Under the pieces are notes generated by a model. The model was given only the letters and a program-made list of their open reading frames with translations, was not told where the DNA came from and ran no database searches. Below are positions 13,524 to 63,272 of a DNA stretch of 64,000 bases, in pieces. Both the position numbers and the translations under genes were made by a program. The first letter of the stretch is position 1; the number at the start of each line of letters is the position of its first letter. The DNA comes from an uncultured Muribaculaceae bacterium (GTDB taxonomy: Bacteria > Bacillota_I > Bacilli_A > RF39 > UBA660): NCBI GenBank assembly GCA_964397485.1, contig CAYNHT010000004.1, positions 7,825-71,824 of the forward strand, written 5' to 3'.

Positions 13524-13532
13524 TTGTAAAAA

Positions 13533-17500: not shown

Positions 17501-17502
17501 TT

Positions 17503-18195: not shown

Positions 18196-18312
18196 ATTAT
18201 CACCAGAAAACTATTCTAACACATTTTACTGTAAATTAAAATAAATAGTCCTTCTTTTTTATAATATTTCTTTTTTTGCTATTTTAGTTTATAATATTAT
18301 TATTTAAAGGAT

Positions 18313-19242: not shown

Positions 19243-19316
19243 ACTATATACGTAGTTTATTTTTATAAAAATTTCCATAAATTTAATATATTTGTTATAA
19301 TATATTTGGTGGTAAT

Positions 19317-24973: not shown

Positions 24974-24999
24974 AAATAAGACCCCCTTCTTTAGTACCA

Positions 25000-36873: not shown

Positions 36874-37747
36874 AACTTTCTAATCTAGTTTCTATTCCTG
36901 TTATTGAATTGATATCATCTATGATTAAATTGACATATGGCAAAGAGATTCTCCTCATTACTAATTCGTTTACTAATGAATCTGGTCCACACGGAAATGA
37001 TGAAACAAATACTATACCATCTATTTGACGTTCTACTAATTTAATTGCACCAATCAATTCTTTGTTATACTTCCAATATAATGTTTTGGACAATGATTTA
37101 GATAATTTATTGGTGACAACTGCATCAAAGCGATCTGCATATATTATTTCAACATCTAATTTTTTTAAAAAATTGGTAATTGGCATCCCCACATAATTGT
37201 CATAAATATTATATGGATGTCCAACTACTAGTACCTTAAGTTTATTACTACTTAACTTACTATAGTTAGTTAAAATTTGTTTTTTTCGTATTTTGTTTTG
37301 CTTTATTAAAGCTATTTGGTATGCTCTAATAACCTCAAATCTACTCTTTTTTAACTCTTTACCAATTTTTATCAACCCGTGTAACTCACTATTACCACCA
37401 TTAGTATCTATATTATAGTTGATAATTTTCACTTTGAAAGTATTGTTAACAATATCATAAAGACTTAAGAAATTAGTGCACGTTTGATTAGTAATACCAT
37501 AATTATCTATTCTAGGTATTAATAAAAAATCACATTTATCTTTTAAATAACTAACATGTCCCATATATATTTTTAAAGATAAACACATCTCATCATTTGT
37601 ATATTTGATTCCCTCATCTATTATATATTTAGTGGTATTGGGACTTTCTACTATTTCACAATCGAGTTCTTCAAAAAAATAGCGCCACATATCGATAAAA
37701 TAATAATAATATATACTCCTAGGAATTCCGATTCTTATCTTGTCCAT
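36833..37747 (-). CDS. Paralog of the 2-hydroxyacyl-CoA dehydratase-like protein at 15618..16547.
   Basis: IGIPRSIYYY...DEMCLSLKIYMGHV...LLIPRI aligns with the 15618..16547 product. Confidence 0.55.
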   Translation of the reverse strand: MDKIRIGIPRSIYYYYFIDMWRYFFEELDCEIVESPNTTKYIIDEGIKYTNDEMCLSLKIYMGHVSYLKDKCDFLLIPRIDNYGITNQTCTNFLSLYDIVNNTFKVKIINYNIDTNGGNSELHGLIKIGKELKKSRFEVIRAYQIALIKQNKIRKKQILTNYSKLSSNKLKVLVVGHPYNIYDNYVGMPITNFLKKLDVEIIYADRFDAVVTNKLSKSLSKTLYWKYNKELIGAIKLVERQIDGIVFVSSFPCGPDSLVNELVMRRISLPYVNLIIDDINSITGIETRLESFVDILGQKKQSIN

Positions 37748-43646: not shown

Positions 43647-43741
43647 AAATATTGTCCTCCTTCCATTACACACATCCAGGTGTTTCAAATTTATACTTAA
43701 TTAAAGATTTACCAAAGTAAACCTTAATTAAATGCAGTAAT

Positions 43742-43771
43742 ACTATAACACTTTTAGTGTATGCTTGTCAA
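43742..43771 (-). promoter_or_regulatory. Promoter for the rpsL-rpsG-fusA-tuf (str) operon: TTGACA-18-TATAGT.
   Basis: Minus strand TTGACAagcatacactaaaagtgtTATAGT, ~95 nt upstream of the rpsL ATG. It shows the str operon is transcribed independently of the inserted block upstream. Confidence 0.5.
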
Positions 43772-43798
43772 TTATTTTTATTCATATTTTAATTTTTT

Positions 43799-44275
43799 CT
43801 AATTATTATTATCTAGTCTTTCTAAATAACCACTTGTTTGATACCTCTCCCCACATTTTAAATAGGGTTCATAATTTTCTATGCTAGAATCTCTTAGGAC
43901 GTTAACATAACCACTACAAATAATATTATTATTTATTGGATCATTGATTACACCAATAAAATTATCTTTTTGCAAAGACTTTACTGTTATGGTTAATCTT
44001 GTGCCGACAGGTACTCCTAAAGCATAATATTTATTAATATATTCTTGAGTAGCTTTGATCATCGTTCCCTCTACCTTACGATAACTGCTAATATTTTCAT
44101 TATTAATATAATTATTTCCAGGTTTATTATTATTGTTGTTACGAGCAGTAATTGGATTAGTAATTGGTAACTTATTAAAATTTTTATTAATTGTAACTGC
44201 CACAATAATTATACAAAGAGCCAAGATTCCACAAAATCCCAACATTGCTCTTAATCCCCATCCGTGGTTATTCAT
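43799..44275 (-). CDS. Membrane-anchored hypothetical protein (158 aa).
   Basis: N-terminal TM segment (LGFCGILALCIIIVAVTI) then an Asn-rich extracellular region; starts 10 nt after the NrtR-like gene, so probably co-transcribed. Confidence 0.5.
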   Translation of the reverse strand: MNNHGWGLRAMLGFCGILALCIIIVAVTINKNFNKLPITNPITARNNNNNKPGNNYINNENISSYRKVEGTMIKATQEYINKYYALGVPVGTRLTITVKSLQKDNFIGVINDPINNNIICSGYVNVLRDSSIENYEPYLKCGERYQTSGYLERLDNNN

Positions 44276-44285
44276 AAGAACCTCC

Positions 44286-44957
44286 CTAAAATAAATTTCT
44301 TTCTTTTATTTCCTCTTTGAATTGATATAATTTAGCAGGTCTACCATTAGCCCCTTCATTCTTATATCCAGTGTCTTCAATTAGACCCAAATTAATGAAT
44401 TTTTTACGGAAATTTCTTCGGTCCAATTCCTGACCAAGTATTTGCTCATATACCCTTTGCAATTCTGGTAAAGTAAAATCACTTGGGAATAGACTCTTTA
44501 ACACATTACTATTAACTATTTTCTTTCTTAAATGTTCAATTGCATTTTCAATTATAATTTCATGATCATATCCCATCTTAGGTATGGCATCAATCGTAAA
44601 CCATGAACTTTCAATGTTAGACCTTTCTTCTCTTTTTATTTCAATACTTTTACTATCAATTAATCCAATAAATGAACATGCAATAATTCGTTCATCCGGA
44701 TTACGATTGATTTCACTAAATACATGAGCTTGTTCTATAAATAAATTAGGTATTCCACATTTGTCAAATACAACATCACTAATATTATCTTCCAAAGTTT
44801 CTGTATCAGTCAAAAATCCTCCTGGTAAAGTCCAGTATCCTTTGTAAGGTTCAGTTTTTTTACGTAATAATAAAACCTTTAACTTTCCTTTATCGATCGT
44901 AAAAATACTTATTAATGTTTCTACAATATTACTATATTCCTTACTAGAATCATTCAT
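44286..44957 (-). CDS. nrtR: NrtR-family regulator: degenerate (non-catalytic) Nudix domain plus a C-terminal winged-helix DNA-binding domain.
   Basis: Nudix box skeleton G-x5-E-x7-..-G-U is present (GGFLTDTETLEDNISDVVFDKCGI), but REx2EE is replaced by DVVFDK. C-terminal LPELQRVYEQILGQELDRRNFRKKF...GRPAKLYQF matches the NrtR wHTH domain as I recall it. Confidence 0.55.
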   Translation of the reverse strand: MNDSSKEYSNIVETLISIFTIDKGKLKVLLLRKKTEPYKGYWTLPGGFLTDTETLEDNISDVVFDKCGIPNLFIEQAHVFSEINRNPDERIIACSFIGLIDSKSIEIKREERSNIESSWFTIDAIPKMGYDHEIIIENAIEHLRKKIVNSNVLKSLFPSDFTLPELQRVYEQILGQELDRRNFRKKFINLGLIEDTGYKNEGANGRPAKLYQFKEEIKERNLF

Positions 44958-44995
44958 TTTCTATCTCTCCTTTTGTGTTTTAACTACACAGCTAT

Positions 44996-45024
44996 ATTAT
45001 AATATTTTTAGAGGATAATGTCAA
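44996..45024 (-). promoter_or_regulatory. Perfect-consensus sigma-A promoter (TTGACA-17-TATAAT) upstream of the NrtR-like gene.
   Basis: Minus strand TTGACAttatcctctaaaaatatTATAAT (plus 45019-45024 and 44996-45001), followed by AAAGGAGAG RBS and ATG at 44957. Confidence 0.55.
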
Positions 45025-45087
45025 TTATGATTTTACATATACACTTATTATGAGGCAATTATCTATAAATATTATATATAATTAAGA

Positions 45088-45115
45088 AAAAAAAGTTAAA
45101 TAAATGTTTAACCTT
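45088..45115 (-). terminator. Terminator after array B paralog 1.
   Basis: Hairpin GTTAAA-CATTTA-TTTAAC followed by TTTTTTTT on the minus strand. Confidence 0.45.
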
Positions 45116-45121
45116 CATTTC

Positions 45122-47713
45122 TTAATTTGTTGGGGTTATCGACATATCAAAATTACGTAACTCATATATTGCAAAACCTGCTTGAGTTCCTGTTATATCT
45201 TTATTAGTAGTAAAAATTATACTTTGAATTTTATGCTGCTTTGGTTTTACCGTAATATAGAATACAGGATAAGTTGAATCAGCTAAAATTCCATTAGTCT
45301 TAATAATATCAATTGGATTAGAATAATGATTAGCTGGTGTATAAAGAGAGTTTGATACAATTACTAACGGTTCTAAATATCCACTATCAACGCAATCTTC
45401 AATACTAGCGACATATCCATCTTCAAATTTTATTTTAAAATTACTAACAGTTACACTTCCACTATTATATAATCTAAAAAACATTTGATTCCAATTTAAT
45501 TTGTTATCAGGCTCATTGTCAACTAAATATTCGCGTTCTCCAGCAAATACCTGTTTAACATTACCAACTTTTTCAATGTTAGTTAACATTTTACTATCAT
45601 CACTATTAAACGGTCTTAAACATTGACCATAATCATAATTATTATTACCAATTGTTTCAAATGAACTACACCAACCTTTTAAATCTTTGGTTGGATCATT
45701 GCTTGTATATATATTATCGTAGTTCATACTTATATCACTTCCATAATTAGGTTGTATATTTTTTAATTTTTCAATTAATACTACAGGTTCTTGGAAAATT
45801 TTAGATAAATTTAAATTACTATCATAACTAACCAACATAGCATCACTATGTCCTTTGTTAAAGTTTTTTAAATCCATATTAGAAGAATAAGTACTTCCTG
45901 ATACTATATATTGACCATTACCTGCTTTTATCATATTTCTAAATTTTTCACTGTTATCTCCACCAAATACTTTTTTAGAAATTACATTTCCATTAGTTAT
46001 ATTATACTTTACAATAATTGCATTACTATATCCTTCATTGGATTTAGATATTCCAGTCATATCTAAATCGGATGATTTGCTATACCCTATTACTACAACT
46101 TCGTTATTGTCGCTTTTTTCTATTGCATAAAATACGTCATCATTACTTCCTCCAAATGAATTTTTCCACAAAACCGTATCTAAATTTTTATTATATTTTA
46201 TTATTACAGCATCTACATAACCATTACTTGCCTTACTTAATCCGGACATATCCATATTATTAGCGGCACTTTGACCAACTACTATGTAACCGTCTGATAC
46301 TTCAATAACATCATAAAAATAAGTGTGTCCATCACCACAAAAAGTATTCTTTGTTAATATATCTAAACTACTATTGTATTTTACAATTATACCAATGTAA
46401 TTAAAATTGCTTGGACATGTTGTTCCAGCCATATCACCATTTACTGAAGCTGAATTACCTACAACAATATAATTAGAGTCAGCTGAAGCTAACAGACTTT
46501 GATATGCATCAGCGGACGCCCCACTAAATATATGATGATCTATTATATTTAAATTTAAATCATATGACATTATTATTGCATCCAAACTACCAGGAACAGC
46601 TGGTCTTACTAATGAAGCTACATCTCCATCAAATGTAGAAGACAGTATATGGCCAACTACTACAATCTTATTTTCTTGATTAATTACTTTTATAAATGTT
46701 TCATAATTATTGTTTGATGAACCAAAAACTTTATTAATAATTACTTCACCTTGCTTATTGTATTTAACAATAACCGCATCACTCGGACCACCTTTATAAT
46801 CAACTATGTCACCGTCACTACTTGCCGTTGTACCTACAGCAATATAACCGTCCACCGTTTCTACAACTGAATTAAACGAATCCTCATTGCTTCCACCATA
46901 GTTTTTACTCCATAGGACATTGCCTTGATTATCAAACTTTACTATAATGGCGTCAAAACCACCATTATTACCGGTCCCATATTTTGTTATTACTTCAGAA
47001 TTACTTTTACCAACTGCTATATATCCGCCATCACTTGTTTCTTTAACATCATTAAATTCATCAAGATATTTACCACCATAACTTACATAATGACTCGCAA
47101 ATGTTGAGGCATCAAGTAGACAATCTACATAAGCATTATAACCATAACTATCAGCACCAACTTTCTCAATCTCTACATAACCTACACAACGATTTGTTAA
47201 ATCAGTTGGGATTCTTATCTCAGCAACTTTTTCTTCATCAATTAATAAGTTAAGATCAAGCATTGTTGTTTCACCAATCTCAGTTGGCAAAGTAACATTC
47301 ATACTTTTGGCACTTGCAACCATTTTCTGTTGGTACCATTTAAATGAATCATTATCATAAAGTTGTAACGAATAATTAACTATCCCATTTTCCTTATAAA
47401 TTAATACTTTTGTTTCATCTGGTATTTCTTGATTATTTAAAGGGTTTAAAATTTTTCCCCTTAAATATCCCGTTTCTTTTAATCTTCCTACTTCAACATA
47501 AGTTGTATCTCCTTCCCATACTAACTCATCATTATATTTAAAATAATATAATTCGGCTGATTTGGCAACCATGTCTCTTTGTCTGTCATAGACTCCACCT
47601 TTACTTCTATCAATAATATTCATTATTATTGGGGTTGCTATTAGGGCTATGATTGCAAGAATCACTATTACTGCAAGTAACTCTATTAAAGTAAATCCTC
47701 TTTTCTTTTTCAT
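45122..47713 (-). CDS. Giant prepilin-signal SBBP beta-propeller repeat protein, array B paralog 1 (~864 aa). Start set to ATG at 47713 (MKKKRGFTLIEL...); the ORF-track start at 47773 adds 20 non-homologous residues.
   Basis: Class III signal peptide; conserved ~200-aa N-terminal domain; >=6 repeats of the form DGGY.AVG.S.S.D.D...GG.DA.IVKYD..GN..W.K.FGGS..D.F (SBBP-like); conserved ~280-aa C-terminal domain ending IYELRNFDMSITPTN. Confidence 0.8.
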   Translation of the reverse strand: MKKKRGFTLIELLAVIVILAIIALIATPIIMNIIDRSKGGVYDRQRDMVAKSAELYYFKYNDELVWEGDTTYVEVGRLKETGYLRGKILNPLNNQEIPDETKVLIYKENGIVNYSLQLYDNDSFKWYQQKMVASAKSMNVTLPTEIGETTMLDLNLLIDEEKVAEIRIPTDLTNRCVGYVEIEKVGADSYGYNAYVDCLLDASTFASHYVSYGGKYLDEFNDVKETSDGGYIAVGKSNSEVITKYGTGNNGGFDAIIVKFDNQGNVLWSKNYGGSNEDSFNSVVETVDGYIAVGTTASSDGDIVDYKGGPSDAVIVKYNKQGEVIINKVFGSSNNNYETFIKVINQENKIVVVGHILSSTFDGDVASLVRPAVPGSLDAIIMSYDLNLNIIDHHIFSGASADAYQSLLASADSNYIVVGNSASVNGDMAGTTCPSNFNYIGIIVKYNSSLDILTKNTFCGDGHTYFYDVIEVSDGYIVVGQSAANNMDMSGLSKASNGYVDAVIIKYNKNLDTVLWKNSFGGSNDDVFYAIEKSDNNEVVVIGYSKSSDLDMTGISKSNEGYSNAIIVKYNITNGNVISKKVFGGDNSEKFRNMIKAGNGQYIVSGSTYSSNMDLKNFNKGHSDAMLVSYDSNLNLSKIFQEPVVLIEKLKNIQPNYGSDISMNYDNIYTSNDPTKDLKGWCSSFETIGNNNYDYGQCLRPFNSDDSKMLTNIEKVGNVKQVFAGEREYLVDNEPDNKLNWNQMFFRLYNSGSVTVSNFKIKFEDGYVASIEDCVDSGYLEPLVIVSNSLYTPANHYSNPIDIIKTNGILADSTYPVFYITVKPKQHKIQSIIFTTNKDITGTQAGFAIYELRNFDMSITPTN

Positions 47714-47744
47714 ACACTTTACTACCTTTCTATTATACATATAA

Positions 47745-47773
47745 ATAATAACACACCTGCTGTTTTTCGTCAA
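47745..47773 (-). promoter_or_regulatory. Promoter (TTGACG-17-TATTAT) for array B paralog 1.
   Basis: Minus strand: plus CGTCAA 47768-47773, 17-nt spacer, plus ATAATA 47745-47750. The same element sits upstream of paralogs 2 and 3. Confidence 0.4.
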
Positions 47774-47798
47774 TTAAATGTATATACATATATATTGA

Positions 47799-47826
47799 TT
47801 GAAAGAAAAAAAGAGTTAAACTCTTT
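47799..47826 (-). terminator. Terminator immediately after array B paralog 2.
   Basis: AAAGAG-TTAAA-CTCTTT hairpin abutting the stop codon, then TTTTTTCTTTC on the minus strand. Confidence 0.45.
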
Positions 47827-50427
47827 TTAATTGGTCGGTGTTATTGACATATCAAAATTACGCAATTCATATATTTGTAACCCGTCAGTGTTATTAATAA
47901 TTTGACGATTAGAAGTAAAAATTACACTGCTTAATTTTGATTTTTTAGGCTTTATTTTTATATCTATATTTGGATAATTTCCGACTCCTGTAGTTCCTCC
48001 CGTATTAATAATATCCAATGAGTTAGGAAAGAAATATGTAGTTGAGTTTAATAATAAAGAGGATACAACAACCATTGGCTCAATATAATTATTAGCTAAT
48101 GCATCGCTAATACTAGCTACATAACCGTCTTCAAATTTAAGTTTCAAATTTGAAATCTCAATTGTATTTCCACCACCGCTTAAAAAATACAAATATATTC
48201 TATACCAATTATAATTGTTGTCTGGTTGTTTTTCTATTTCATATTCGTGTTCTCCTGCATATACAACTTTAAAATTAGAAGTATTTTCACCATTAGTTAA
48301 AAGTCTAATATCATCATTATTAAATGGGAATAAACAATAACCATAATTATGATTAATATTAGGAGCATAATTAGTTCCAGAACTACACCAGTTGCCAATA
48401 TCAACACTAGGATTATTAGATGTATATACATTGTCATAATATGAAGAAATTTCAGTACCGTAATTTGGAACAATCGTTTTTAATTTATCAATTATCACAA
48501 CTGGTTCTTCGAACGTTTTAATTAGGTTCAAGTTACTATCATAACTGACTAAGATTGCATCTCTATGTCCTTTATTAAAGTTTTGCAAGTTATAATTATT
48601 TGAATATGTTCCACCTGCTATAACATATCTATTATTATCATTTCTTATAATAGCATTAAAAGCATCACTATTACTTCCACCGAAAACTTTCTTTTGCAAT
48701 ACATTTCCACTTCCATTATATGTAACTAAAAATGCATTACTATATCCACTTCCTGATACAGTTATACCATTCATATCCATATCTTCTGATTTACTATATC
48801 CAACAACAGCAAATTCCTCATTACTAATTTTTAATATATCTCTGACATAATCTTCATCCGAACCACCAAAACTCTTTTTCCAAACAATATTTGATAAGTT
48901 TTTATCATATTTAACTATGATACCATCATATATTTCAGAATCTGTTTTACTCAAGTCAGTCATATCTCCATTAATAGAAGCGCTATATCCCACTGTAATA
49001 TATCCATTATCAACTTCAATTGCACCATTAAATAGTTCTGACTTACTTCCCTTGAAAGAATTTTTATATTCTAGATTACCATTACTATCATATTTTATGA
49101 TTATCGCATCGCTATCTGCATAGGTAGTATCATATGCTAATCCAAGCATATCGTGGTCAAATGAACTCGAACCACCAGTAACAAGATATCCATTATCACT
49201 TGTTTGCATTACGGTGTTAAAGTTTTCATAATATGTTCCTGAGAAAAAACTTCTCCATACGGTATTAAAATTATTATCAAATTTAATAATTATACCGGCA
49301 CTTCTCGTTCCTGGAGCAGTAACACCTGTCATATCTCCGTCTTTCACTAAGATACATGAACTTCCTACAACAATAAAACCATCATTAACTTTAATAATAT
49401 CTCTAAATGCATCAGTTCCATTTGTACCAGATGAACCATAACTTATTTTATTAACAACATTACCACTTAGATCATATTTAACTAAAATAGCATCATCAGT
49501 TCCACCTTTATATATACCTTCTAAATCTACATCATTTGAATTAGTATATCCAACTGCAACATATCCGTCAGTAGTTACAGCAACTGCACGAAAATAATCA
49601 TGACTAGTACCACCAAAATTTTTGCTCCATTCAACATTACCTTGACTATCAAATTTAACAATTATTGCATCATATTTTCCTTTAGTAGTATTTCCATATT
49701 TTGTTATGACTTCAGAATTACTCTCTCCTACTGCTATATATCCGCCATCAGCAGTTTGTTTAACATCATTAAACACATCTAAGTATTTTCCACCATAACT
49801 GACATAGTGACTTGCAAATGTTGATGCATCAATTAAACAGTCTACAAATGCATTATACTCATAATTGTTATTACCAATTTTTTCTATTTCTACATATCCT
49901 ACACAACGATTTGTTATATCGGTTGGTATTCTTATCTCGGCTGATTTTCCCTGATTAATTAACGTATTTAAATCAATAGTTGTTGTTTCTCCAACTTCGG
50001 TTGGTAGAGTGATATTCATGCTTTTCACACTTTCTACCATTTTTTGTTGATACCACTTAAATGAATCATTATCATATAACTGTAACGAGTAATTTACTAG
50101 CCCGTTTTCCTTATAGATTAATACCTTTGCATCATCTGGGATTTCTTGATTATTTAATGGGTTTAAGATTTTCCCCCTTAAATATCCTGTTTCTTTTAAT
50201 CTTCCAACTTCAACATAAGTTGTATTCCCTTCCCATACCAACTCATCATTATATTTAAAATAATATAATTCGGCTGATTTGGCAACCATGTCTCTTTGTC
50301 TATCATAAACTCCGCCCTTACTTCTATCAATAATATTCATTATTATTGGGGTTGCTATTAGAGCTATGATTGCTAGAATTACTATTACTGCGAGTAATTC
50401 TATTAATGTAAATCCTCTTTTTTTCAT
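47827..50427 (-). CDS. Giant prepilin-signal SBBP beta-propeller repeat protein, array B paralog 2 (866 aa).
   Basis: MKKRGFTLIELLAVIVILAIIALIATPIIMNIIDRSKGGVYDRQRDMVAKSAELYYFKYNDELVWEG..., almost identical over the first ~200 aa to paralogs 1, 3 and 4; divergent repeats in the middle; conserved C-terminus. Confidence 0.85.
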   Translation of the reverse strand: MKKRGFTLIELLAVIVILAIIALIATPIIMNIIDRSKGGVYDRQRDMVAKSAELYYFKYNDELVWEGNTTYVEVGRLKETGYLRGKILNPLNNQEIPDDAKVLIYKENGLVNYSLQLYDNDSFKWYQQKMVESVKSMNITLPTEVGETTTIDLNTLINQGKSAEIRIPTDITNRCVGYVEIEKIGNNNYEYNAFVDCLIDASTFASHYVSYGGKYLDVFNDVKQTADGGYIAVGESNSEVITKYGNTTKGKYDAIIVKFDSQGNVEWSKNFGGTSHDYFRAVAVTTDGYVAVGYTNSNDVDLEGIYKGGTDDAILVKYDLSGNVVNKISYGSSGTNGTDAFRDIIKVNDGFIVVGSSCILVKDGDMTGVTAPGTRSAGIIIKFDNNFNTVWRSFFSGTYYENFNTVMQTSDNGYLVTGGSSSFDHDMLGLAYDTTYADSDAIIIKYDSNGNLEYKNSFKGSKSELFNGAIEVDNGYITVGYSASINGDMTDLSKTDSEIYDGIIVKYDKNLSNIVWKKSFGGSDEDYVRDILKISNEEFAVVGYSKSEDMDMNGITVSGSGYSNAFLVTYNGSGNVLQKKVFGGSNSDAFNAIIRNDNNRYVIAGGTYSNNYNLQNFNKGHRDAILVSYDSNLNLIKTFEEPVVIIDKLKTIVPNYGTEISSYYDNVYTSNNPSVDIGNWCSSGTNYAPNINHNYGYCLFPFNNDDIRLLTNGENTSNFKVVYAGEHEYEIEKQPDNNYNWYRIYLYFLSGGGNTIEISNLKLKFEDGYVASISDALANNYIEPMVVVSSLLLNSTTYFFPNSLDIINTGGTTGVGNYPNIDIKIKPKKSKLSSVIFTSNRQIINNTDGLQIYELRNFDMSITPTN

Positions 50428-50459
50428 ATGTCAACTACCTTCCTTATCATTACATATAA

Positions 50460-50488
50460 ATAATAACATAACCATATTGTTTCGTCAA
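50460..50488 (-). promoter_or_regulatory. Promoter (TTGACG-17-TATTAT) for array B paralog 2.
   Basis: Plus CGTCAA 50483-50488 and ATAATA 50460-50465. Confidence 0.4.
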
Positions 50489-50508
50489 TTATTAGTATAC
50501 AGATAAAT

Positions 50509-50529
50509 GAAAAAAGAGTTTGAAACTCT
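50509..50529 (-). terminator. Terminator after array B paralog 3.
   Basis: AGAGTTT-G-AAACTCT hairpin with flanking T-run. Confidence 0.45.
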
Positions 50530-50531
50530 CT

Positions 50532-53084
50532 TTAATTTGTTGGTGTTATTGACATATCAAAATTACGTAATTCGTAAATTGATATTCCCCTATCAGTTCC
50601 CGTTACATCTCTATTAGATGTAAAAATAAAACTATCTATTTTCTTTTGTCTAGATTTTAAATTCATATAGAAAACAGGGTAAGAAGAGCCATCTATTTTT
50701 CCATCTGTAAATAAAATATTATTTAGATTGTTGTAAGTTCTATCACTGTATGGAGGATATGTAAGAATATTCGAAACCACAACTAGAGGTTCAATATACC
50801 CGTCACTAACACTTTGTTCTATACTACCTATATACCCATCTTCAAATTTTATCTTAAAACTACTTAATTCTGTATTGTCATTTTGCATCCTAAAATATAG
50901 TTGATACCAATTAGTTTTAACATTTGGTTCATTGATTATAGGATATTCATTTTCACCTTGATAAATTATTTTAAAATTCGGATTGTTTTCGATGTTATTT
51001 AATAACTTCATATCATCAGAGTTAAATGGTCTTAAACACTGACCATAAGGATAATTACTTTCTCCATTTGGCAAGTAATTGCTACACCAACCGCTTAGAT
51101 CAACTTCTGGATTATTGCTAGTAAAAATATTTGAATAATTTAAACTAGTATCAGTTCCATAGTTAGAAACTATTGTTTTTAATTTTTCAATTATAACAAC
51201 AGGTTCCTGAAATATTTTTGACAAATTAAAATTCATATCATAACCTACTAGAATTGCATCACTATGCCCTTTATTAAAGTTTTTTAAATATCCGTCACTA
51301 GAGAACGTTTGCCCAGCTAATATAAATCTATTACTACTAGTCTTGATAATACTTCTAAATATATCACTGTTGTTTCCGCCGAAGATTTTTTTAGAAACAA
51401 TACTTCCATCAGTAATGCTATATTTTACAATAACAGCATTACTGTAACCATCTTTCGATATAGCTAGTCCACTCATATCCATATCTTCAGACTTACTATA
51501 CCCTACCGCTACTACCTCATTCGCATTAACAGAAGTAACAGCATAAAATACATCATCATTACTCCCACCAAATGACTTTTTCCATATTATATTTTGTAAA
51601 TTTTTATCATATTTAACAATTACTGCATCATTGTAACCATTACTGGCTTTACTTAAATCTGTCATGTCTAAATCAAACCCATTTGAATGACCTACAACTA
51701 TATAGCCATCTGATACCTCAACTATATCATTAAAAGCACCACGACTATTATTACCACCATAAAATTCCATACTTGATACCATTTCCATATCGTTATCTAA
51801 TTTAAATATATATGATGTATATCCACCTTTATATGTTGCTACTCCGATATACCCATTATCTGTAGCAATAAATTCTTTAAAATCTCTATAACTGTGAGCA
51901 TTATGAAATTTAGTTGTCAATATATTAAAGTCAAAATCCATTGTCATAATAATAAATTGAAAACGCCCACCTTCATATATAGCATTTAGATAATCTCCGT
52001 CCTTGGTATATATATCAGCATTTCCTGATATTATAAACTTATTGTCTTTTATCATTATGTGGTTAAAACTTTCACCACCATCTAGGTTTGTTCCACCATA
52101 AGTTCTTTTGTATACTACATTTCCTTGTTTATTAAACTTGACAATTATAGCGTCTGTCGGACCTCCTTTGTAATCATCTATATCGATGTCTTCACTAGAT
52201 GTAGAACCTACTGCTACATAACCATCAGCTGTTTCTAAAACTGAATTAAAAATGTCATTATTGCTTCCACCAAAATTTTTGCTCCAAAGAACATTACCGT
52301 TTGAATCAAATTTTACGATTATCGCATCATACATTCCATTATTACCAATTCCATATTTTGTAATAACTTCCGAGTTACTTCTTCCAACCGCTACATAACC
52401 ACCATCAGTTGTTTCTTTTACATCATTAAATTCATCAAGATATTTACCACCATAACTAACATAGTGACTTGCAAATGTTGATGCATCTAGTAAACAATCT
52501 ACATATGCTTCATATGCATAATTATCATTACCTATCTTTTCTACTTCAACATATCCTACACAACGATTTGTTATATCGGTTGGTATTCTTATTTCTGCTG
52601 CTTTACCTTCGTTTATAAGAGTATCCAAATCAACTGTTGTTTTTTCTCCTATTTCAGTTGGTAATTCTATATTCATGCTTTTGACGCTTTCTACCATTTT
52701 TTGTTGATACCACTTAAATGAATCATTATCATATAATTGAAGTGAATACTTTACTATACCGTCTTCTTTATAAATTAGTACTTTTGTTTCATCTGGTATT
52801 TCTTGATTATTCAAAGGATTTAATATTTTTTCTCTTAAATATCCTGTTTCTTTTAATCTTCCTATTTCAACATAACTTATATCATCTTCCCATACTAACT
52901 CATCATTATATTTAAAATAATATAATTCAGCTGATTTGGCAACCATATCTCTTTGTCTATCATAGACTCCACCTTTACTTCTATCAATAATATTCATTAT
53001 TATTGGCACAGCTATTAGGGCTATGATTGCAAGAATCACTATTACTGCTAAAAGTTCTATTAACGTAAATCCTCTTTTTTTCAT
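50532..53084 (-). CDS. Giant prepilin-signal SBBP beta-propeller repeat protein, array B paralog 3 (850 aa).
   Basis: Same architecture as paralog 2; ends ...ISIYELRNFDMSITPTN. Confidence 0.85.
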   Translation of the reverse strand: MKKRGFTLIELLAVIVILAIIALIAVPIIMNIIDRSKGGVYDRQRDMVAKSAELYYFKYNDELVWEDDISYVEIGRLKETGYLREKILNPLNNQEIPDETKVLIYKEDGIVKYSLQLYDNDSFKWYQQKMVESVKSMNIELPTEIGEKTTVDLDTLINEGKAAEIRIPTDITNRCVGYVEVEKIGNDNYAYEAYVDCLLDASTFASHYVSYGGKYLDEFNDVKETTDGGYVAVGRSNSEVITKYGIGNNGMYDAIIVKFDSNGNVLWSKNFGGSNNDIFNSVLETADGYVAVGSTSSEDIDIDDYKGGPTDAIIVKFNKQGNVVYKRTYGGTNLDGGESFNHIMIKDNKFIISGNADIYTKDGDYLNAIYEGGRFQFIIMTMDFDFNILTTKFHNAHSYRDFKEFIATDNGYIGVATYKGGYTSYIFKLDNDMEMVSSMEFYGGNNSRGAFNDIVEVSDGYIVVGHSNGFDLDMTDLSKASNGYNDAVIVKYDKNLQNIIWKKSFGGSNDDVFYAVTSVNANEVVAVGYSKSEDMDMSGLAISKDGYSNAVIVKYSITDGSIVSKKIFGGNNSDIFRSIIKTSSNRFILAGQTFSSDGYLKNFNKGHSDAILVGYDMNFNLSKIFQEPVVIIEKLKTIVSNYGTDTSLNYSNIFTSNNPEVDLSGWCSNYLPNGESNYPYGQCLRPFNSDDMKLLNNIENNPNFKIIYQGENEYPIINEPNVKTNWYQLYFRMQNDNTELSSFKIKFEDGYIGSIEQSVSDGYIEPLVVVSNILTYPPYSDRTYNNLNNILFTDGKIDGSSYPVFYMNLKSRQKKIDSFIFTSNRDVTGTDRGISIYELRNFDMSITPTN

Positions 53085-53116
53085 ATGTCAACTACCTTCC
53101 TTATCATTACATATAA

Positions 53117-53145
53117 ATAATAACATACCGATATTGTTTCGTCAA
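53117..53145 (-). promoter_or_regulatory. Promoter (TTGACG-17-TATTAT) for array B paralog 3.
   Basis: Plus CGTCAA 53140-53145 and ATAATA 53117-53122. Confidence 0.4.
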
Positions 53146-53164
53146 TTATTACTATATAGATAAA

Positions 53165-53188
53165 TGAAAAAAGAGTTTGAAACTCTTT
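53165..53188 (-). terminator. Terminator after array B paralog 4 (and its out-of-frame remnant tail).
   Basis: AAAGAGTTT-G-AAACTCTTT hairpin plus T-run. Confidence 0.45.
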
Positions 53189-53191
53189 TTA

Positions 53192-53248
53192 ATTTGTTGG
53201 TGTTATTGACATATCAAAATTACGTAATTCGTAAATTGATAAACCGTC
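53192..53248 (-). pseudogene. Untranslated, in-frame remnant of the conserved C-terminal 19 codons (DGLSIYELRNFDMSITPTN*) of array B paralog 4, cut off from the CDS by a premature TGA at 53249-53251.
   Basis: Minus strand reads ...AAT TAT AAT AAT TTA TGA GAC GGT TTA TCA ATT TAC GAA TTA CGT AAT TTT GAT ATG TCA ATA ACA CCA ACA AAT TAA. The DNA is near-identical to the coding 3' ends of paralogs 1-3. Confidence 0.6.
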
Positions 53249-55783
53249 TCATAAATTATTATAATTTTTAGAACTTGTTAAATATATTGAATTCAACTTT
53301 GATAATTTAGGTTTAAAAATTAAGTAAAGTGATGGTGAAGATCCAACACCAGTTCTTCCACCTTCATTTATTAAATCTATAACATTTGGATAAAGTGCAG
53401 GTGGATAAGTTGTAGTTACATACGAATTTACAATTACAAGTGGCTCTATGTAACCTTTTTCTATTGCGTCTGTTATATGACCAATATAACCATCTTCAAA
53501 TTTTAACTTTAAATTAGATAATTCTAAATTACCAGTACCAAAGCTATTATAGGCACGTAACAAATGCCAATTATTATTATTTGTTTGTTGATTTATTACC
53601 TCATATTCATATTCACCCTGATACATTTTAGCTCCATAACCTAGTTCTGAAACTGTCAATAATTTTTGATCATCCATATTAAATGGTCTTAGACAAAACG
53701 CATGATAATAATTACTTGTATTGCCGGTAGTATAAGGGACATTGCTATTGCACCATCCTAGTAAATCTTTTGTGGGATCATTACTAGTGTATATATTATC
53801 ATACTTTAAACTAATATTAGAACCATAATTGCTTTGGATAGGCTTGATTTGATCTATTAGTACAACTGGTTCTTGGAATATTTTAGATAAATTAAAATTA
53901 TTATCATAACTAACTAAGATTGCATCCTGATGACCTTTGTTAAAATTTTTCAAATCCAAGTTGTTCGAATATGTAGATCCGGACAATACATAAGCACCAC
54001 TACTAGTTTTTACGATACTATGGAATTTATCGCTATTCGTTCCACCAAATGTTTTTTTAGAAATAACATTTCCTGTAGCTATGTCATATTTTACTAAAAT
54101 AGCATTGCCATACCCATCTGTTGATTTAGTTATTCCGCTCATATCCATATCTTCAGATTTACTATATCCAACAATTACAACCTCATTATTATTCACTTTT
54201 TCGGCTGAATAAAAATAATCGTCATTACTCCCGCCAAATGTTTTTTTCCATAATACTGCTTCTAAATTTTTATCATATTTCACGATTACAGCATCGAAAT
54301 AACCATTGTCAGTTTTACTAAGACCTAACATATCTTGATCAGATGATTTACTATATCCGACAGCTATATAACCATCTAATACTTCTACTACATCATAAAA
54401 ATAATCCTGTTTACTTCCACGCAAGGAATTTTTTCCAACTAAATTTCCTTCATCATCAACCTTTATAATAATGGCTTCCTCTTGATAAGTATCAGTTGTA
54501 TAACCAATACCATCCATATCATAATCTTTTGACGTAGAAAAACCAGTTATGACATAGTTATTATCACTAGTCTTGATTCCTTTATTGAATTCTTCATTAT
54601 AATGGCCAGTAAAAATATTCATCCATTCAACCTCTAAATTTAAATCAAACTTTATTGTTAACCCCTCTAAAGATCTAACTAGTCCTTGAACATCTGTCAT
54701 ATCTCCGTCATTATTACTGCCTATTCTAGCGAAAACAACAACCGAATTACCAGATGATACAACTCCCATAAAGTGTTCCCAACTTTGACTTGTTCCAAAA
54801 TTTCTTTTAGCCAAAACTTCACCTTGGCTACTATATTTTACTATTAAACCGTCACTTGTTCCACCCCAATAAGAATCAATATCTAAATCATTACTAGATG
54901 TTGAGCCAACTGCAATATATCCACCCGGAATTTCAACTACACTTCTGAATATATCATTATTACTTCCACCAAAATTTTTACTCCAAAGGACATTACCATT
55001 AACATCAAATTTTACTATAATAGCATCATATTTGCCATTATTTCCAATTCCATATTTAGTTATTACATTCGAATTGCTTCTTCCAACAGCTAGATATCCT
55101 CCATCACTTGTTTCAATTACATCATTAAATTCATCTAAATATTTGCCGCCATAACTAAGATAGTGGCTTGCAAATGTTGATGCATCAAGTAGACAATCTA
55201 CATATGCTTCATATGTATAATTATCATTACCTACTTTTTCTATATCTACATATCCTACACAACGATTCGCTAGATCAGTTGGTATTCTTATCTCTGCTGC
55301 TTTACCTTGATCAATTAATGTGTTTAAATCAACTGTGGTTTTAGTACCAATTTCAGTTGGAAGTTCTATATCCATACCTTGGACACTGGCTACCATTTTT
55401 TGTTGGTACCACTTAAATGAATCATTGTCATATAATTGCAAAGAATAATTTATTTTACCATCTTCTTTGTATATTAATACTTTTGCTTCATCTGGGATTT
55501 CTTGGTTATTTAAAGGGTTCAATATTTTTTCTCTTAAATATCCCGTTTCTTTTAATCTTCCTATTTCAACATAACTTATATCATCTTCCCATACTAACTC
55601 ATCATTATATTTAAAATAATATAATTCAGCTGATTTGGCAACCATATCTCTTTGTCTATCATAGACTCCACCTTTACTTCTATCAATAATATTCATTATT
55701 ATTGGGGTTGCGATAAGAGCTATGATTGCTAAAATTACTATTACTGCTAGTAATTCTATTAATGTAAATCCTCTTTTTTTCAT
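53249..55783 (-). CDS. Giant prepilin-signal SBBP beta-propeller repeat protein, array B paralog 4 (844 aa), C-terminally truncated by ~19 residues relative to its paralogs.
   Basis: MKKRGFTLIELLAVIVILAIIALIATPIIMNIIDRSKGG... with the same architecture; ends ...LTSSKNYNNL* where paralogs continue to ...IYELRNFDMSITPTN. Confidence 0.8.
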   Translation of the reverse strand: MKKRGFTLIELLAVIVILAIIALIATPIIMNIIDRSKGGVYDRQRDMVAKSAELYYFKYNDELVWEDDISYVEIGRLKETGYLREKILNPLNNQEIPDEAKVLIYKEDGKINYSLQLYDNDSFKWYQQKMVASVQGMDIELPTEIGTKTTVDLNTLIDQGKAAEIRIPTDLANRCVGYVDIEKVGNDNYTYEAYVDCLLDASTFASHYLSYGGKYLDEFNDVIETSDGGYLAVGRSNSNVITKYGIGNNGKYDAIIVKFDVNGNVLWSKNFGGSNNDIFRSVVEIPGGYIAVGSTSSNDLDIDSYWGGTSDGLIVKYSSQGEVLAKRNFGTSQSWEHFMGVVSSGNSVVVFARIGSNNDGDMTDVQGLVRSLEGLTIKFDLNLEVEWMNIFTGHYNEEFNKGIKTSDNNYVITGFSTSKDYDMDGIGYTTDTYQEEAIIIKVDDEGNLVGKNSLRGSKQDYFYDVVEVLDGYIAVGYSKSSDQDMLGLSKTDNGYFDAVIVKYDKNLEAVLWKKTFGGSNDDYFYSAEKVNNNEVVIVGYSKSEDMDMSGITKSTDGYGNAILVKYDIATGNVISKKTFGGTNSDKFHSIVKTSSGAYVLSGSTYSNNLDLKNFNKGHQDAILVSYDNNFNLSKIFQEPVVLIDQIKPIQSNYGSNISLKYDNIYTSNDPTKDLLGWCNSNVPYTTGNTSNYYHAFCLRPFNMDDQKLLTVSELGYGAKMYQGEYEYEVINQQTNNNNWHLLRAYNSFGTGNLELSNLKLKFEDGYIGHITDAIEKGYIEPLVIVNSYVTTTYPPALYPNVIDLINEGGRTGVGSSPSLYLIFKPKLSKLNSIYLTSSKNYNNL

Positions 55784-55870
55784 CTACTACACTACCTTTC
55801 TTACAATATATAAATGATATCATATTTATATAATAACCGTCAATGTTAGAACAATACTATTTCATTCAAA

Positions 55871-55902
55871 ATAAAAAGAGTTGAATCTTGAGTTCAACTC
55901 TT
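55871..55902 (-). terminator. Rho-independent terminator after rpoC.
   Basis: AAGAGTTGAA-TCTTGA-GTTCAACTCTT, 10-bp stem, followed by a T-run on the minus strand. Confidence 0.65.
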
Positions 55903-55907
55903 TTTGG

Positions 55908-58900
55908 TTAATCCATTAATTCTTGTTCTAATGCTTCTAATGGTTCTTCCTTTAGTAAATCTAGTTCTAAATCATAATCAAACTTTTGATATTTTTTAGC
56001 ACCTGTTCCTGCTGGAATTAATTTACCAATAATAACATTTTCTTTTAACCCGTTTAAGTGATCCACTTTACCATGAATTGCTGCATCTGTAAGTATTCTA
56101 GTTGTTTCTTGGAATGATGCTGCAGATAAGAATGAATCAGTTTCAAGTGAGGCTTTAGTAATACCTAACAATACTGGACGACCAGTTGCTGGATTTTTAC
56201 CTTCAAGAATTAATCCTTTATTAATATCTGTAAATTTATTTATGTTTACCATTGTTCCTGGTAATGATAATGAATCACCTGTATTAATTATCTTTATTCT
56301 AGAAATCATTCTTCTAGCTATAACTTCAACGTGTTTATCACTAATATCAACACCTTGAGAACGATAAACTTTTTGAATTTCTAATAAAATGTATTGTTGT
56401 ACAGTAATTGGATCTGTTACGATTAAAAGTTCTTTAGGACTAATTGCACCATGTGTAAGTCTTTGCCCCGCTTTAACTTCTTCGTTTAGCTCAACAGCTA
56501 ATTTAGAACCATAATTTGATGTATGCTCTTTTGTTTCAACATCGTTTGTTACTGAAATAACAAATTTACCATTTTCTTCTTCGATCTTAGATACTCTACC
56601 GTTAATATCTGAAATAGTAGCTTTACCTTTAGGATTACGAGCTTCAAACAACTCTTGAACACGAGGTAAACCTTGTGTAATATCATCCCCGGCAACTCCA
56701 CCTGTATTAAATGTACGCATCGTTAACTGTGTACCCGGCTCACCAATTGATTGGGCTGCCATAATACCAACTGCTTCTCCAATTTCAACAACTGATCCAG
56801 TTGCTAAATTACGACCATAACATTTTTGACATACACCATGGTCTGTTTTACATGTAAGAACAGTTCTGATAGGTACTTTTGTAATTCCTGCTTTAATAAT
56901 CTTGTCGGCAAGTTGTTCATTAATATAAGTATTTCTCTCAGCAATGACTTCTTTTGTTTCTGGATGAATAACTTTTTTATTAGTATATCTTCCGATAATA
57001 CGATCAGAAAGTGATTCAATTATTGTTCCATCTTTTTCATTAGTAAAAGCTGCAACTAACACACCTTGTTCAGTACCACAATCTTCTTCTTTGACAATTA
57101 TATCTTGTGATACGTCAACTAAACGACGAGTTAAGTAACCAGCATCCGCTGTTTTTAACGCTGTATCAACGGCTCCCTTACGAGCACCATGTGTTGATAA
57201 GAAGAATTCAGATATTGTTACCCCTTCACTAAATGAAGATTTAACAGGAATCTCTACATATTCTCCACCCGGCTTAAAGAATAATCCACGCATACCAACT
57301 AATTGAGTATGACTTCCAATATCCCCACGAGCTTTACTCATCATCATGATAGAAATTGGATTTTCTTTATCTTCTTTAACCATTGTTTCTAATTCCTTAG
57401 AAATTTTTGTTTTAGCGTTTGACCATATATTAATAACTTTTTCATATCTTTCTTGATCAGTAATTAAACCTCTCTTAAATTGCTTATTAATAGTGTCTAC
57501 CATATCTTGACTCTCTTTTAAGACTTCAGGTTTAATAGTACTTTCTTTGATATCTGTAATAGCAATCGATATTCCAGATAAAGTAGAATATTTAAATCCT
57601 AAATCCTTTAGTTTATCAAGCATAACTGATGTTTCAGTTGTTTGATATCTTTTATATATTTGAGCAATTATCTTACTTAAAGCCCCTTTATTTAAAGCAT
57701 CAATCAGTGGCATATTTTCAATTTCTTCTTTAATGTTTTTACCACTATCAATAAAGAATTTGCTAGGAGTAATTTTTTCAATATTCTCAGAACTTCCTTC
57801 GTTAATATATTGGAAAGTATCTGGGAAAATTTCATTAAATAATAATTTACCAGGAGTTGTTGCTAAATACTTATTCATATAAGCATCAGGGAAAATTTTG
57901 TATTTAAATGATCTTACTGGTAACGCAATACGTGTATGAAGAGTTATTTCTCTTCTTTCATATGCCATAATTGCTTCGTTAGCATTTTTAAATACTCTTC
58001 CTTCACCAGGTAATCCCGCTTTTTCAATTGTTAAGTAGTAATTACCTAAAACCATATCTTGTGACGGTGTAACAATTGGTTTACCATCTTTGGGACTTAG
58101 GATGTTATTAGCACCTAACATCAAAATACGAGCTTCTGCCTGTGCTTCTTCACCAAGTGGTACGTGAACTGCCATTTGATCTCCATCAAAGTCGGCGTTG
58201 AATGCCGCACAAACTAATGGATGCAATCTTATAGAACGACCACTAATTAATTTAGGTTCAAATGCTTGAATACCTAATCTATGTAATGTAGGAGCACGGT
58301 TTAATAACACTGGATGCTCTTTGATCTTTTCTTCAACAATATCCCAAACTCTAGGATCTTGATTTTCAATCATTCTTTTCGCAGCTTTAATATTAGAAGC
58401 TATTTCCTTAGTTACTAATCCATTAATAACATGTGGTTTAAATAACTCTAATGCCATTTCTTTAGGTATTCCACACTCATACATTTTTAAGTTTGGACCT
58501 ACTACGATAACTGAACGTCCTGAATAATCAACACGTTTACCTAATAAGTTTTGGCGGAATCGACCTTGTTTACCTTTAAGCATACTACTTAATGATTTTA
58601 ACGGACGATTTCCAGCCCCTGTGATATTTCTACCGCGACGACCATTATCAAATAAAGCATCAACAGCTTCTTGAAGCATACGTTTTTCATTTTGAATAAT
58701 GATAGACGGAGCTCCTAAATCCATTAATTTCTTTAAACGGTTATTTCTGTTAATAACACGACGATATAAATCATTTAAATCACTAGTAGCGAAACGTCCA
58801 CCATCCAATTGAATCATAGGACGTAACTCTGGTGGTATAACTGGTAGTGCATCTAAAATCATCCATTCAGGACGATTTCCTGATTCCATGAATGCACTTA

Positions 58901-59543
58901 ATACGTCTAATCTTTTTATTAAACGAATTCTTTTTTGTGAAGTAGAATCTTTAATTTCTTCAATATCTTTTTTTATTTGTTCTACTTCTGGTTCAAGTAC
59001 TACTTGTTCCAATAATTCTTTAATTGCTTCCGCACCCATTCCTACTCTAAAAGTATTACCATATTTTTCATAATAAGCACGGTATTCTTTATCAGAAATA
59101 GTTTGTTTTTTCTCTAATGGGGCTGCTCCTGGATCTAAAACAACATACGATACAAAGTATAATACTTCTTCTAAATCACGTGGAGACATATCTAGAACTA
59201 ATCCCATTCTTGATGGAATTCCTTTAAAGAACCAAATGTGAGATACAGGAGTTGCAAGTTCAATATGTCCCATACGCTCACGACGTACCTTAGAACGAGT
59301 TACTTCAACTCCACATCTATCACAAACAATATTTTTATATCTTAAACGTTTATATTTACCACAAGAACATTCAAAATCCTTTGTTGGACCAAATATTTTT
59401 TCACAAAATAGTCCGTCACGCTCTGGTTTTAAAGTTCTGTAGTTAATAGTTTCAGCTTTTTTTACTTCACCAAATGACCAAGATCTTATTTTATCAGGTG
59501 AGGCAATTGCGATTTTTAAACCTTCAAAGTTGTTAACATCCAT
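55908..59543 (-). CDS. rpoC: DNA-directed RNA polymerase subunit beta' (RpoC).
   Basis: 1211 aa; [29 protein letters not shown]..., zinc finger CSCGKYKR...[15 protein letters not shown] catalytic motif. Confidence 0.98.
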
Positions 59544-63175: not shown

Positions 63176-63272
63176 TCTTTCACCCCTATAAACTATATTT
63201 ACCAAAGAACATAAACTCGATTATAAAGTATATGCCGCCAATTTATAATTTTATCAGTATATATACAAATTG

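Follow-up and report, generated by a model that had tools for sequence, protein, structure and literature searches.

Bacillus-type genomes carry rplL, ybxB, rpoB, rpoC, ybxF, rpsL, rpsG, fusA and tuf in this order. A 64,000-nucleotide stretch of contig CAYNHT010000004.1 (hereafter the window), from an uncultured Bacilli lineage of gut and digester samples with low guanine plus cytosine (GC) content, has the same flanking gene order. Unlike the Bacillus-type junction, in which an L7Ae gene (ybxF) sits in a gap of under about 0.8 kb, the window has 12.26 kb between the rpoC stop and the rpsL start, occupied by four large tandem genes (pil1 to pil4), a gene for an NrtR-like regulator and a gene for a small transmembrane protein (smem). 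Which of these genes are insertions, where did they come from, and what do the four large ones encode? We favour, with a probability of about 0.7, an account in which an ancestral NrtR-smem-rpsL region stands next to a native array of modular type IV pilin genes that was duplicated in place.

Modular pilins are a recently recognised means of giving type IV filaments new binding functions and have so far been described as single genes. They consist of a pilin module with a grafted functional module and are widespread, with >1,200 proteins in 264 architectures (PMC8179133). PilB, with a vWA module, and PilC, with a lectin module, are the modular type IV pilins of Streptococcus sanguinis (Raynaud et al. 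2021, PMC8179133; PMC9934059), and display at the filament tip has been argued for bulky modular pilins (PMC8179133). The lineage studied here has a small genome and devotes several per cent of it to tandem modular pilin arrays, in which a conserved 5' part and a variable body invite recombination. Provided that the proteins are displayed, it is probably through them, above all, that these gut and digester bacteria meet hosts, particles, phages or partner cells. The interest of the locus is this large, arrayed and diversifying family with a new architecture, and not its location. A search of the literature found nothing specific on pilin expansions in RF39-type Bacilli and nothing usable on pilin genes downstream of rpoC. 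In some streptococci, comY operons lie beside rpoC.

Four tandem genes encode predicted modular pilins

The window is Bacillota sequence of 29% GC, and all genes of interest lie on the minus strand. In the order of transcription they are a small methyltransferase gene, rpoB, rpoC, pil1 to pil4, the NrtR-like gene, smem, rpsL, rpsG, fusA and tuf. This is the arrangement that an earlier note on this DNA had described, with the methyltransferase gene, rpoB and rpoC on the rplL side; its block size of about 11.6 kb is corrected here to an rpoC-rpsL distance of 12.26 kb. The intergenic gaps inside the block are all below 180 nucleotides. The four large genes are the following.

53249-55783, minus strand: pil1, modular prepilin of 844 amino acids, ends at an in-frame TGA
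50532-53084, minus strand: pil2, modular prepilin of 850 amino acids
47827-50427, minus strand: pil3, modular prepilin of 866 amino acids
45122-47713, minus strand: pil4, modular prepilin of 863 amino acids, with its ATG at 47713 (the mechanically called open reading frame begins further upstream, at a TTG)

These four tandem paralogs of 844-866 amino acids all score above the cut-offs for the prepilin N-methylation motif (PF07963/TIGR02532). Their class III signal peptide reads MKKRG/FTLIELLAVIVILAIIALIA, with the cleavage-site context MKKRG/FTLIE (the slash marks the site). G5, F6, T7, L8, I9 and E10 are invariant across 53 aligned family members, G5, F6 and E10 being the Gly-1, Phe+1 and Glu+5 positions of such a signal peptide. 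All elements of a type IV pilin leader are present, namely a basic leader, Gly, Phe/Met+1, Glu+5 and a hydrophobic stretch, and in a phmmer search residues 6-57 align with mature S. sanguinis PilE1 (8pfb), starting from F1.

An AlphaFold (AF2) model of pil2, built from the 53-member alignment (predicted local distance difference test, pLDDT, 86.6; predicted template modelling score, pTM, 0.75), shows an alpha1 helix (residues 8-62) and a small pilin sheet (strands 69-115), the predicted structural elements by which a type IV pilin is recognised. There follow a further small domain of helix and sheet in which two cysteines are conserved (120-200), a seven-bladed beta-propeller (203-628) and a C-terminal beta-sandwich (640-850). 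Prepilin-signal beta-propeller proteins had been proposed from the letters of the sequence, and both the signal in all four proteins and the modelled propeller bear this out. The best fold match of the propeller in the Protein Data Bank (Foldseek) is the SBBP-type propeller of CylK (E 3e-22, 19% identity). Among the four proteins the SBBP family NF047494 gives a partial match to pil3 only (61 bits, cut-off 400), and no Pfam repeat family was reported for the propeller at E<=0.01.

Modelled separately, the C-terminal domain reaches a pLDDT of 84.6 and weakly matches sandwiches of the carbohydrate-binding module or adhesin type. It is rare, with 144 clusters among 1.84 billion representatives, and nearly always C-terminal. 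The extreme C-terminal motif E-L-R-N-F-D-M-S-I-T-P-T-N/E is nearly invariant family-wide (pil2 to pil4, e.g. 50532-50580); the domain that precedes it is variable. A modular pilin is defined by a pilin module joined to a module foreign to pili (Raynaud et al. 2021), and in the model the propeller and the sandwich are such modules. By their predicted architecture, pil1 to pil4 are therefore best described as modular type IV pilins, and the combination of pilin module, two-cysteine domain, SBBP propeller and rare beta-sandwich appears to be new.

Several known systems bear comparison. S. sanguinis PilB and PilC likewise fuse a class III signal peptide and a small pilin module to a bulky module in a monoderm. 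They differ in that the bulky part is here an SBBP-type propeller plus a rare beta-sandwich, placed after an extra two-cysteine domain, and in that the genes stand in tandem, with between 4 and at least 10 paralogs per array, and are spread over at least five loci, whereas pilB and pilC are single genes inside the pil operon. Moreover, no pilus machinery is seen near the arrays. The PilY1/PilC tip adhesins of Gram-negative bacteria also use a beta-propeller for adhesion on a type IV pilus (PMC8179133); however, PilY1 is not a pilin, and its IPR008707 propeller docks on a minor-pilin complex, whereas here the propeller is covalently fused to the pilin module. CofB of the type IVb pili of enterotoxigenic Escherichia coli is likewise a minor pilin of large size, in which additional beta domains follow the pilin module and a beta-sandwich closes the chain (PMC8179133), but it has no propeller and is encoded by a single-copy gene within a pilus operon. 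SBBP proteins such as the Leptospira LipL53-family lipoproteins (NF047494) and CylK (7fh6/7ron) share the propeller fold class. They carry a lipobox or no anchor, identity is about 19%, and CylK is an enzyme, from which catalysis is not inferable here.

The array consists of copies of one unit

The array is made of four copies of a unit of about 2.7 kb that includes promoter, gene and terminator. The first ~800 nucleotides are 85-100% identical between copies, and residues 280-520, the central propeller blades, are only 32-53% identical. At identical residues the same codon is used in 78-84% of cases within the first 100 codons versus about 45-65% elsewhere. Since synonymous codon identity is raised in this way, the sequences suggest that the 5' ends have been partly homogenised beyond protein-level constraint. 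One such unit would have arisen within the genome, been placed at the rpoC-NrtR site and then been tandemly duplicated.

The first copy has lost its end. The in-frame TGA of pil1 falls 19 codons before the ancestral end, and the conserved family tail ending in IYELRNFDMSITPTN is still encoded in frame beyond it.

53189-53248, minus strand: orphaned pil1 tail, DGLSIYELRNFDMSITPTN followed by a stop, the conserved C-terminus of the family in frame after the TGA (53189-53251 with the TGA)

Several assemblies agree on the 844-amino-acid form. The premature TGA seems to be a fixed nonsense mutation, by which the C-terminal domain loses its last beta-strand. Recoding of TGA to tryptophan was considered and ruled out: TGA is an ordinary stop in this genome, ending three other window genes (4/41 genes in all), core genes are normal in genetic code 11, and the aligned position of the paralogs is not tryptophan.

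Related arrays at other loci

The same species has at least 17 modular-prepilin genes in at least five loci, and the first ~25 residues are almost identical in all of them. A second locus lies in the window itself, downstream of pnp (1-6479, minus strand), with three genes.

4191-6479, minus strand: modular prepilin gene with an Ig-like module
1693-4080, minus strand: modular prepilin gene with an fn3 plus Laminin_G_3 module, 795 amino acids
1-1663, minus strand: third modular prepilin gene, starts at 1663 and runs off the window end

The 795-amino-acid protein has the Laminin_G_3/ConA-like module type, as does S. sanguinis PilC. A further gene of 755 amino acids lies about 9 kb beyond, past the suf genes (locus L100; genomic loci are labelled L throughout). 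Other loci of the species read rpe-742-107-861-PFOR (numbers are protein lengths in amino acids); locus B, with genes of 861 and 553 amino acids plus a 1012-amino-acid gene a few kb upstream; and a tandem 768-860-766-765 array directly upstream of mraZ-rsmH-ftsL-pbp (L101, a 633 kb contig of the Joint Genome Institute (JGI), 10001-19879). The C-terminal modules vary across the family and include propeller, Ig-like, Laminin_G_3 and HYR/Glug types. Related genera, with PpdK ~80% identical, have their arrays upstream of xerC-tdk-ppdK and not at rpoC; one array holds 4 paralogs and another at least 10. Because equivalent arrays occupy other loci of the same species, the position next to rpoBC is not special; it is incidental.

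One sample, ERZ27252287, joins these genes in another way. Comparison of L092 and L097 with L093 and L095 gives locus-B upstream-861-866-863-NrtR-rpsL on one side and 844-553-locus-B downstream on the other, with the switch points inside the ~836-nucleotide 5' segment shared by the paralogs. The joins are not cleanly reciprocal, as the pil2 body is missing. They could be inter-locus recombination, possibly with chromosomal rearrangement, or a k-mer assembly chimera.

Pilin antigenic variation by way of pilE and pilS is well known in Neisseria. PMC4877100 mentions it. As in that system, pilin genes exist in many copies that agree in their 5' part and vary distally, which leaves scope for recombination between them. 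Unlike it, every copy here is full-length with a promoter of its own, and the alternative joins and the 5' homogenisation do no more than suggest recombination. As a tentative proposal, to which we give less than even odds by some distance, the type IV prepilin signal may have become the chief means of surface display in this lineage. At least 17 large 'pilin-adhesins' with promoters of their own would form a rapidly diversifying repertoire, in tandem arrays inserted where core operons (rpoBC/str, pnp, dcw, rpe) begin or end. Their shared, homogenised 5' segment of ~0.8 kb could serve as a movable substrate for recombination, shuffle propeller bodies within and between loci, and even rearrange the chromosome. 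Pilin antigenic variation would then have a counterpart in which every copy is full-length and expressed.

Filament display or membrane anchoring

What would such proteins do? The prepilins would be inserted in the membrane, and a prepilin peptidase would cleave after Gly5 and N-methylate Phe6. The pilin module would then hold propeller and sandwich, a putative ligand-binding head, on the outer side of the cell wall. The most likely place of display is the tip of a filament of type IV or Com type, as has been shown for PilB and PilC in S. sanguinis. With 5' ends that are nearly identical and central blades that vary, the cell could draw on a set of different binding or antigenic specificities. 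In a related genome, comEA/comEC adjoin the pilin array.

Several points weigh against the favoured account. In about 150 kb of this species (window, L090-L097, L100 and L101) we found no GspE/PilB-type Walker motif, no T2SSE and no Peptidase_A24 domain, and neither a prepilin peptidase nor an assembly ATPase nor a platform protein was seen there. Propeller and sandwich together come to ~650 residues, a large mass to bring through peptidoglycan and to pack in a filament. To our knowledge, at least 17 bulky minor pilins far exceed what any characterised pilus uses. Such number and bulk are explained no less well by simple anchoring in the membrane than by display on a filament. In addition, pil1 has its premature stop, and all genomes are metagenome assemblies, in which near-identical long 5' segments can cause mis-joins.

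The strongest alternative takes up these points. The prepilin signal would be a cleavable membrane anchor and nothing else, the proteins would be displayed individually and never polymerise, and the class III signal peptide would be the general surface-display route of the lineage. At least 17 large proteins share this signal and near-identical first ~25 residues while carrying very different C-terminal modules, and their number and bulk lie above any known pilus composition. Small transmembrane proteins with a related domain and no prepilin motif also exist (smem and an open reading frame of 422 amino acids, both described below). However, Glu+5 is invariant, and this residue matters for filament assembly and not for anchoring. 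The pilin module has been retained and is the best-conserved part of the protein, and the characterised modular pilins are filament subunits (PMC8179133). We hold anchoring to be a serious possibility, if a doubtful one.

Promoters, terminators and expression

In the favoured account the pilin genes were multiplied together with their promoters and terminators. The signals of the region are as follows.

55867-55905, minus strand: rpoC intrinsic terminator, 13-bp stem (55905-55873) plus U-run, about -13 kcal/mol
55814-55843, minus strand: pil1 promoter, TTGACG-18-TATCAT with upstream TG
53166-53190, minus strand: hairpin after pil1, weak AU-rich terminator
53117-53145, minus strand: pil2 promoter, TTGACG-17-TATTAT, extended -10
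50509-50533, minus strand: hairpin after pil2, weak terminator
50460-50488, minus strand: pil3 promoter, TTGACG-17-TATTAT
47805-47828, minus strand: hairpin after pil3, weak terminator
47745-47773, minus strand: pil4 promoter, TTGACG-17-TATTAT
45084-45121, minus strand: hairpin after pil4, about -9.6 kcal/mol, proximal border of the lineage-specific insert
44996-45024, minus strand: promoter of the NrtR-like gene, perfect TTGACA-17-TATAAT, kept in relatives
43742-43771, minus strand: rpsL promoter, TTGACA-18-TATAGT, TG-extended, kept in relatives

The strong terminator after rpoC, the perfect promoter of the NrtR-like gene (45024-44996) and the restart of rpsL from a promoter of its own (43771-43742) had all been noticed before and are confirmed. 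A promoter TTGACG-17-TATTAT had been assigned to every pilin gene. This holds for pil2, pil3 and pil4, where an upstream TG precedes the -10, but not for pil1, which has a spacer of 18 and TATCAT. Likewise, each pilin gene does have its own terminator hairpin, but these hairpins are short and AU-rich, followed by a T-run, with -6 to -10 kcal/mol; they are real but weak, and a consensus terminator scan did not call them. The identical pilin promoters are a by-product of the tandem duplication of the ~2.7 kb unit and not independent events. A scan of 39-64 kb against Rfam gave no match at gathering thresholds.

The earlier note had also considered that the position was selected for high, growth-coupled pilin expression, through read-through from rpoBC or proximity to str. 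All genes do point the same way as rpoBC and the str operon, with weak terminators after the pilin genes and promoters near consensus. Against this stand the strong terminator after rpoC, the own promoter of every pilin gene and a codon usage unlike that of highly expressed genes such as tuf, fusA and rpoBC. Sister arrays adjoin unrelated genes, and in a small compact genome housekeeping neighbours are expected anyway. We consider selection for growth-coupled expression unlikely.

The rpoC-rpsL junction in relatives

The flanking genes of the window and the gene orders of its relatives are given below; identities are relative to the window proteins.

63273-63860, minus strand: small methyltransferase gene, upstream flank
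59543-63205, minus strand: rpoB, upstream flank
55908-59543, minus strand: rpoC, open reading frame of 1211 amino acids, RpoC Pfam domains found on the identical gene in L095
43227-43646, minus strand: rpsL, downstream flank

Same species, L095 (full order) and L096, L001 and L003-L005 (partial): identical proteins; rpoC-844-850-866-863/872-NrtR-smem-rpsL
Sister species, L103: RpoC C-terminus 94%, EF-G 94%, NrtR 80%; rpoC-866-862-910-NrtR-smem-rpsL
L107-109, including GCA_900198705.1: RpoB 85%, RpoC 84%, EF-G 87%, NrtR 68%; rplL-methyltransferase gene-rpoB-rpoC-NrtR-rpsL
L105/106, GCA_028707455.1: EF-G 89%, NrtR 69%; nrdDG-yunB-DUF4015-yutD-NrtR-smem-rpsL, no rpoC nearby
L009: RpoC 76%; rpoC-smem-like-365 amino acids-unrelated modular pilin of 757 amino acids-183 amino acids-rpsL
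L053 and L060: S12 75% and 80%; rplL joined to smem-like genes and rpsL, without rpoBC between

Unlike the Bacillus-type locus, the clade has the NrtR-like gene, with or without the small transmembrane protein, in the ybxF slot before rpsL. A Pfam search of the block proteins found no L7Ae/ybxF domain and the gaps leave no room for such a gene, in agreement with the reported absence of a ybxF homolog. A further difference from the Bacillus-type locus is that this species and its sister have a pilin array between rpoC and the NrtR-like gene. In the sister species the third pilin gene (910 amino acids) carries a different, Ig-like module, and in L107-109 rpoC and rpsL are 1.3 kb apart, without pilin genes.

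The most parsimonious reading of this series is that rpoC-NrtR(-smem)-rpsL is ancestral in the clade and that the ~10.8 kb pilin array, from the rpoC terminator to the NrtR promoter, is the sole lineage-specific insert. Its arrival would date from the ancestor that this species shared with L103, with turnover of its content since then. The graded series of relatives thus separates ancestral residents (the NrtR-like gene, the small transmembrane protein and the rpsL leader) from true insertions. The whole block had been taken as accessory cargo; this stands for the four pilin genes but not for the NrtR-like gene and smem, which are ancestral neighbours of rpsL, since NrtR(-smem)-rpsL is conserved whatever lies upstream. 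The suggestion of a lineage-specific hotspot fits, as L103 has a pilin block of different content at the same site. An identical block in all close relatives would have spoken against an insertion, and the comparison gave another picture: L103 (three different pilin genes) differs in content, and L107-109, with RpoC at 84%, are free of pilin genes.

How conserved is the junction itself? Among the 62 informative species genomes of a biased sample, the top 80 S12 matches, the rpoC-rpsL gap is <=800 nucleotides in 29, 0.8-2.5 kb in four and >2.5 kb in nine; in the other 20 there is no rpoC within at least 6 kb of rpsL. Tight junctions are present in L010, L013, L021 and others, and where the gap is larger it is filled by a mixture of genes, for transporters, glycosyltransferases or surface proteins among others. 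The junction is commonly disrupted in this clade. That it is normally contiguous and among the most conserved of the chromosome, as had been assumed, does not agree with a tight junction in 29/62 sampled genomes, and in Bacillota the rpoBC-str junction cannot be relied on to stay constant.

The block had been described as an accessory insertion, and comparison of the GC content and codon usage of the block with the flanks had been proposed. The pilin genes have a GC of 0.29-0.30 and a third-position GC (GC3) of ~0.16, like ordinary window genes. Their pooled codon-usage distance is 0.37 to background versus 0.94 to tuf/fusA/rpsL/rpsG/rpoBC, so that they match the background and not the highly expressed flanks, and the tetranucleotide correlation of the array with the rest of the window is r 0.95-0.98. 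Horizontal acquisition of the array, as a genomic island inserted between rpoC and rpsL, would account for the absence of the array from L107-type relatives, for the different gene content of the sister species and for the other sites that homologous arrays occupy in related genera. Of the hallmarks of such islands, patchy presence is indeed found (different content in L103, absence in L107-109, a place elsewhere in L089 and L098). In contrast, composition fits the genome background in GC, GC3, codon usage and tetranucleotides. No integrase, transposase or other mobility gene is among the six open reading frames of the block, and there is no border tRNA (the nearest are at 13.4 and 16.7 kb) and no att-type or flanking direct repeat, the only repetition being that of the 2.7 kb unit inside the array. 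In homology the genes stand closest to other paralogs of the same species and to proteins of uncultured 'Bacilli bacterium' metagenome-assembled genomes. A foreign island is thus very unlikely, and the array appears native.

Least credible of all, and very improbable, is an assembly artefact in which paralog repeats produced a chimeric rpoC-array junction. Sample ERZ27252287 does join the same genes differently, with breakpoints within the shared 5' segment. However, the sequence at the rpoC-pil1 join is unique, and JGI contigs that were assembled independently show it again, including a 609 kb contig (three samples) and a separate 129 kb contig; the sister species has the rpoC-pilin...NrtR order too. 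Independent assemblies confirm the rpoC-pil1 join (L095 and L096) and the rpsL-proximal part (L001 and L003-L005).

The NrtR-like gene, smem and the rpsL leader

The ancestral part of the favoured account comprises the following features.

44286-44957, minus strand: gene for the NrtR-like regulator, 223 amino acids, NUDIX plus NrtR winged helix
44974-44990, minus strand: palindrome TGTGT-N7-ACACA between the -10 and the ribosome-binding site of the NrtR-like gene, also in L103 and L107
43799-44275, minus strand: smem, small transmembrane protein of 158 amino acids, one transmembrane helix
43647-43741, minus strand: rpsL 5' leader of ~95 nucleotides, with a ~15-bp hairpin and an invariant ACACCTGG...GTGTG before the ribosome-binding site

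The regulator has both the Nudix fold and the C-terminal NrtR winged helix of the family (PF21906, 86 bits, cut-off 27; PF00293, 27.4 bits, cut-off 21.1). Because it does not reach the cut-off of the NtrR equivalog (NF050029, 128 bits versus 400), we call it NrtR-like or NrtR-family. Read from the sequence, its Nudix box is degenerate (G-x5-E-x7-DVVFDKCGI) and lacks the catalytic REUxEE residues. The protein has 4,308 matches, the best 120 of which are 60-80% identical and 215-226 amino acids long. Judged by these matches and by synteny, it is a highly conserved gene of the clade and an ancestral resident upstream of rpsL. Promoter and palindrome are kept in the window, L103 and L107, and the palindrome, as a candidate autoregulatory operator, probably belongs to the regulator itself. 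One other match in the window has three mismatches and is at chance level. No gene of NAD metabolism is adjacent. Control of the pilin array by the regulator was considered and dropped, as the pilin promoters have no counterpart of the palindrome and the other match is at chance level.

The smem gene starts 10 nucleotides downstream of the NrtR-like gene and is probably co-transcribed with it. The C-terminal domain of its product (69-147, two conserved cysteines) is homologous to the second domain of the pilins (127-203; hhalign probability 97.5%, E 6.5e-12). A word-indexed search gave four relatives, and distant ones were found by tblastn of the loci and hhalign; they adjoin rpsL or lie between rplL or rpoC and rpsL (L009, L026, L053, L060, L103 and L105). 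The N-terminal motif N-x-G-W-G-L before the transmembrane helix is common to the relatives in L009 and L060. It resembles a prepilin cleavage site but does not match one, as Glu+5 is missing, and smem has no canonical prepilin motif. Elsewhere in the window, at 22685-26268 (minus strand), open reading frames of 422 and 771 amino acids have N-terminal transmembrane segments and no Pfam match; the former (25000-26268) gives a weak profile match, with 72% probability, to the domain shared by smem and the pilins.

The rpsL leader has no match in Rfam. Together with its promoter it is kept across eleven relatives, with compensatory changes at six stem pairs, and on this comparison it may be a lineage-wide regulatory leader of the str operon.

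Apart from these loci, the window holds two paralogous DUF2229/HGD-D clusters (2-hydroxyacyl-CoA dehydratase-like) on the minus strand at 13591-16547 and 35719-37747, 20 kb apart, one of which is accompanied by a BcrAD_BadFG activator.

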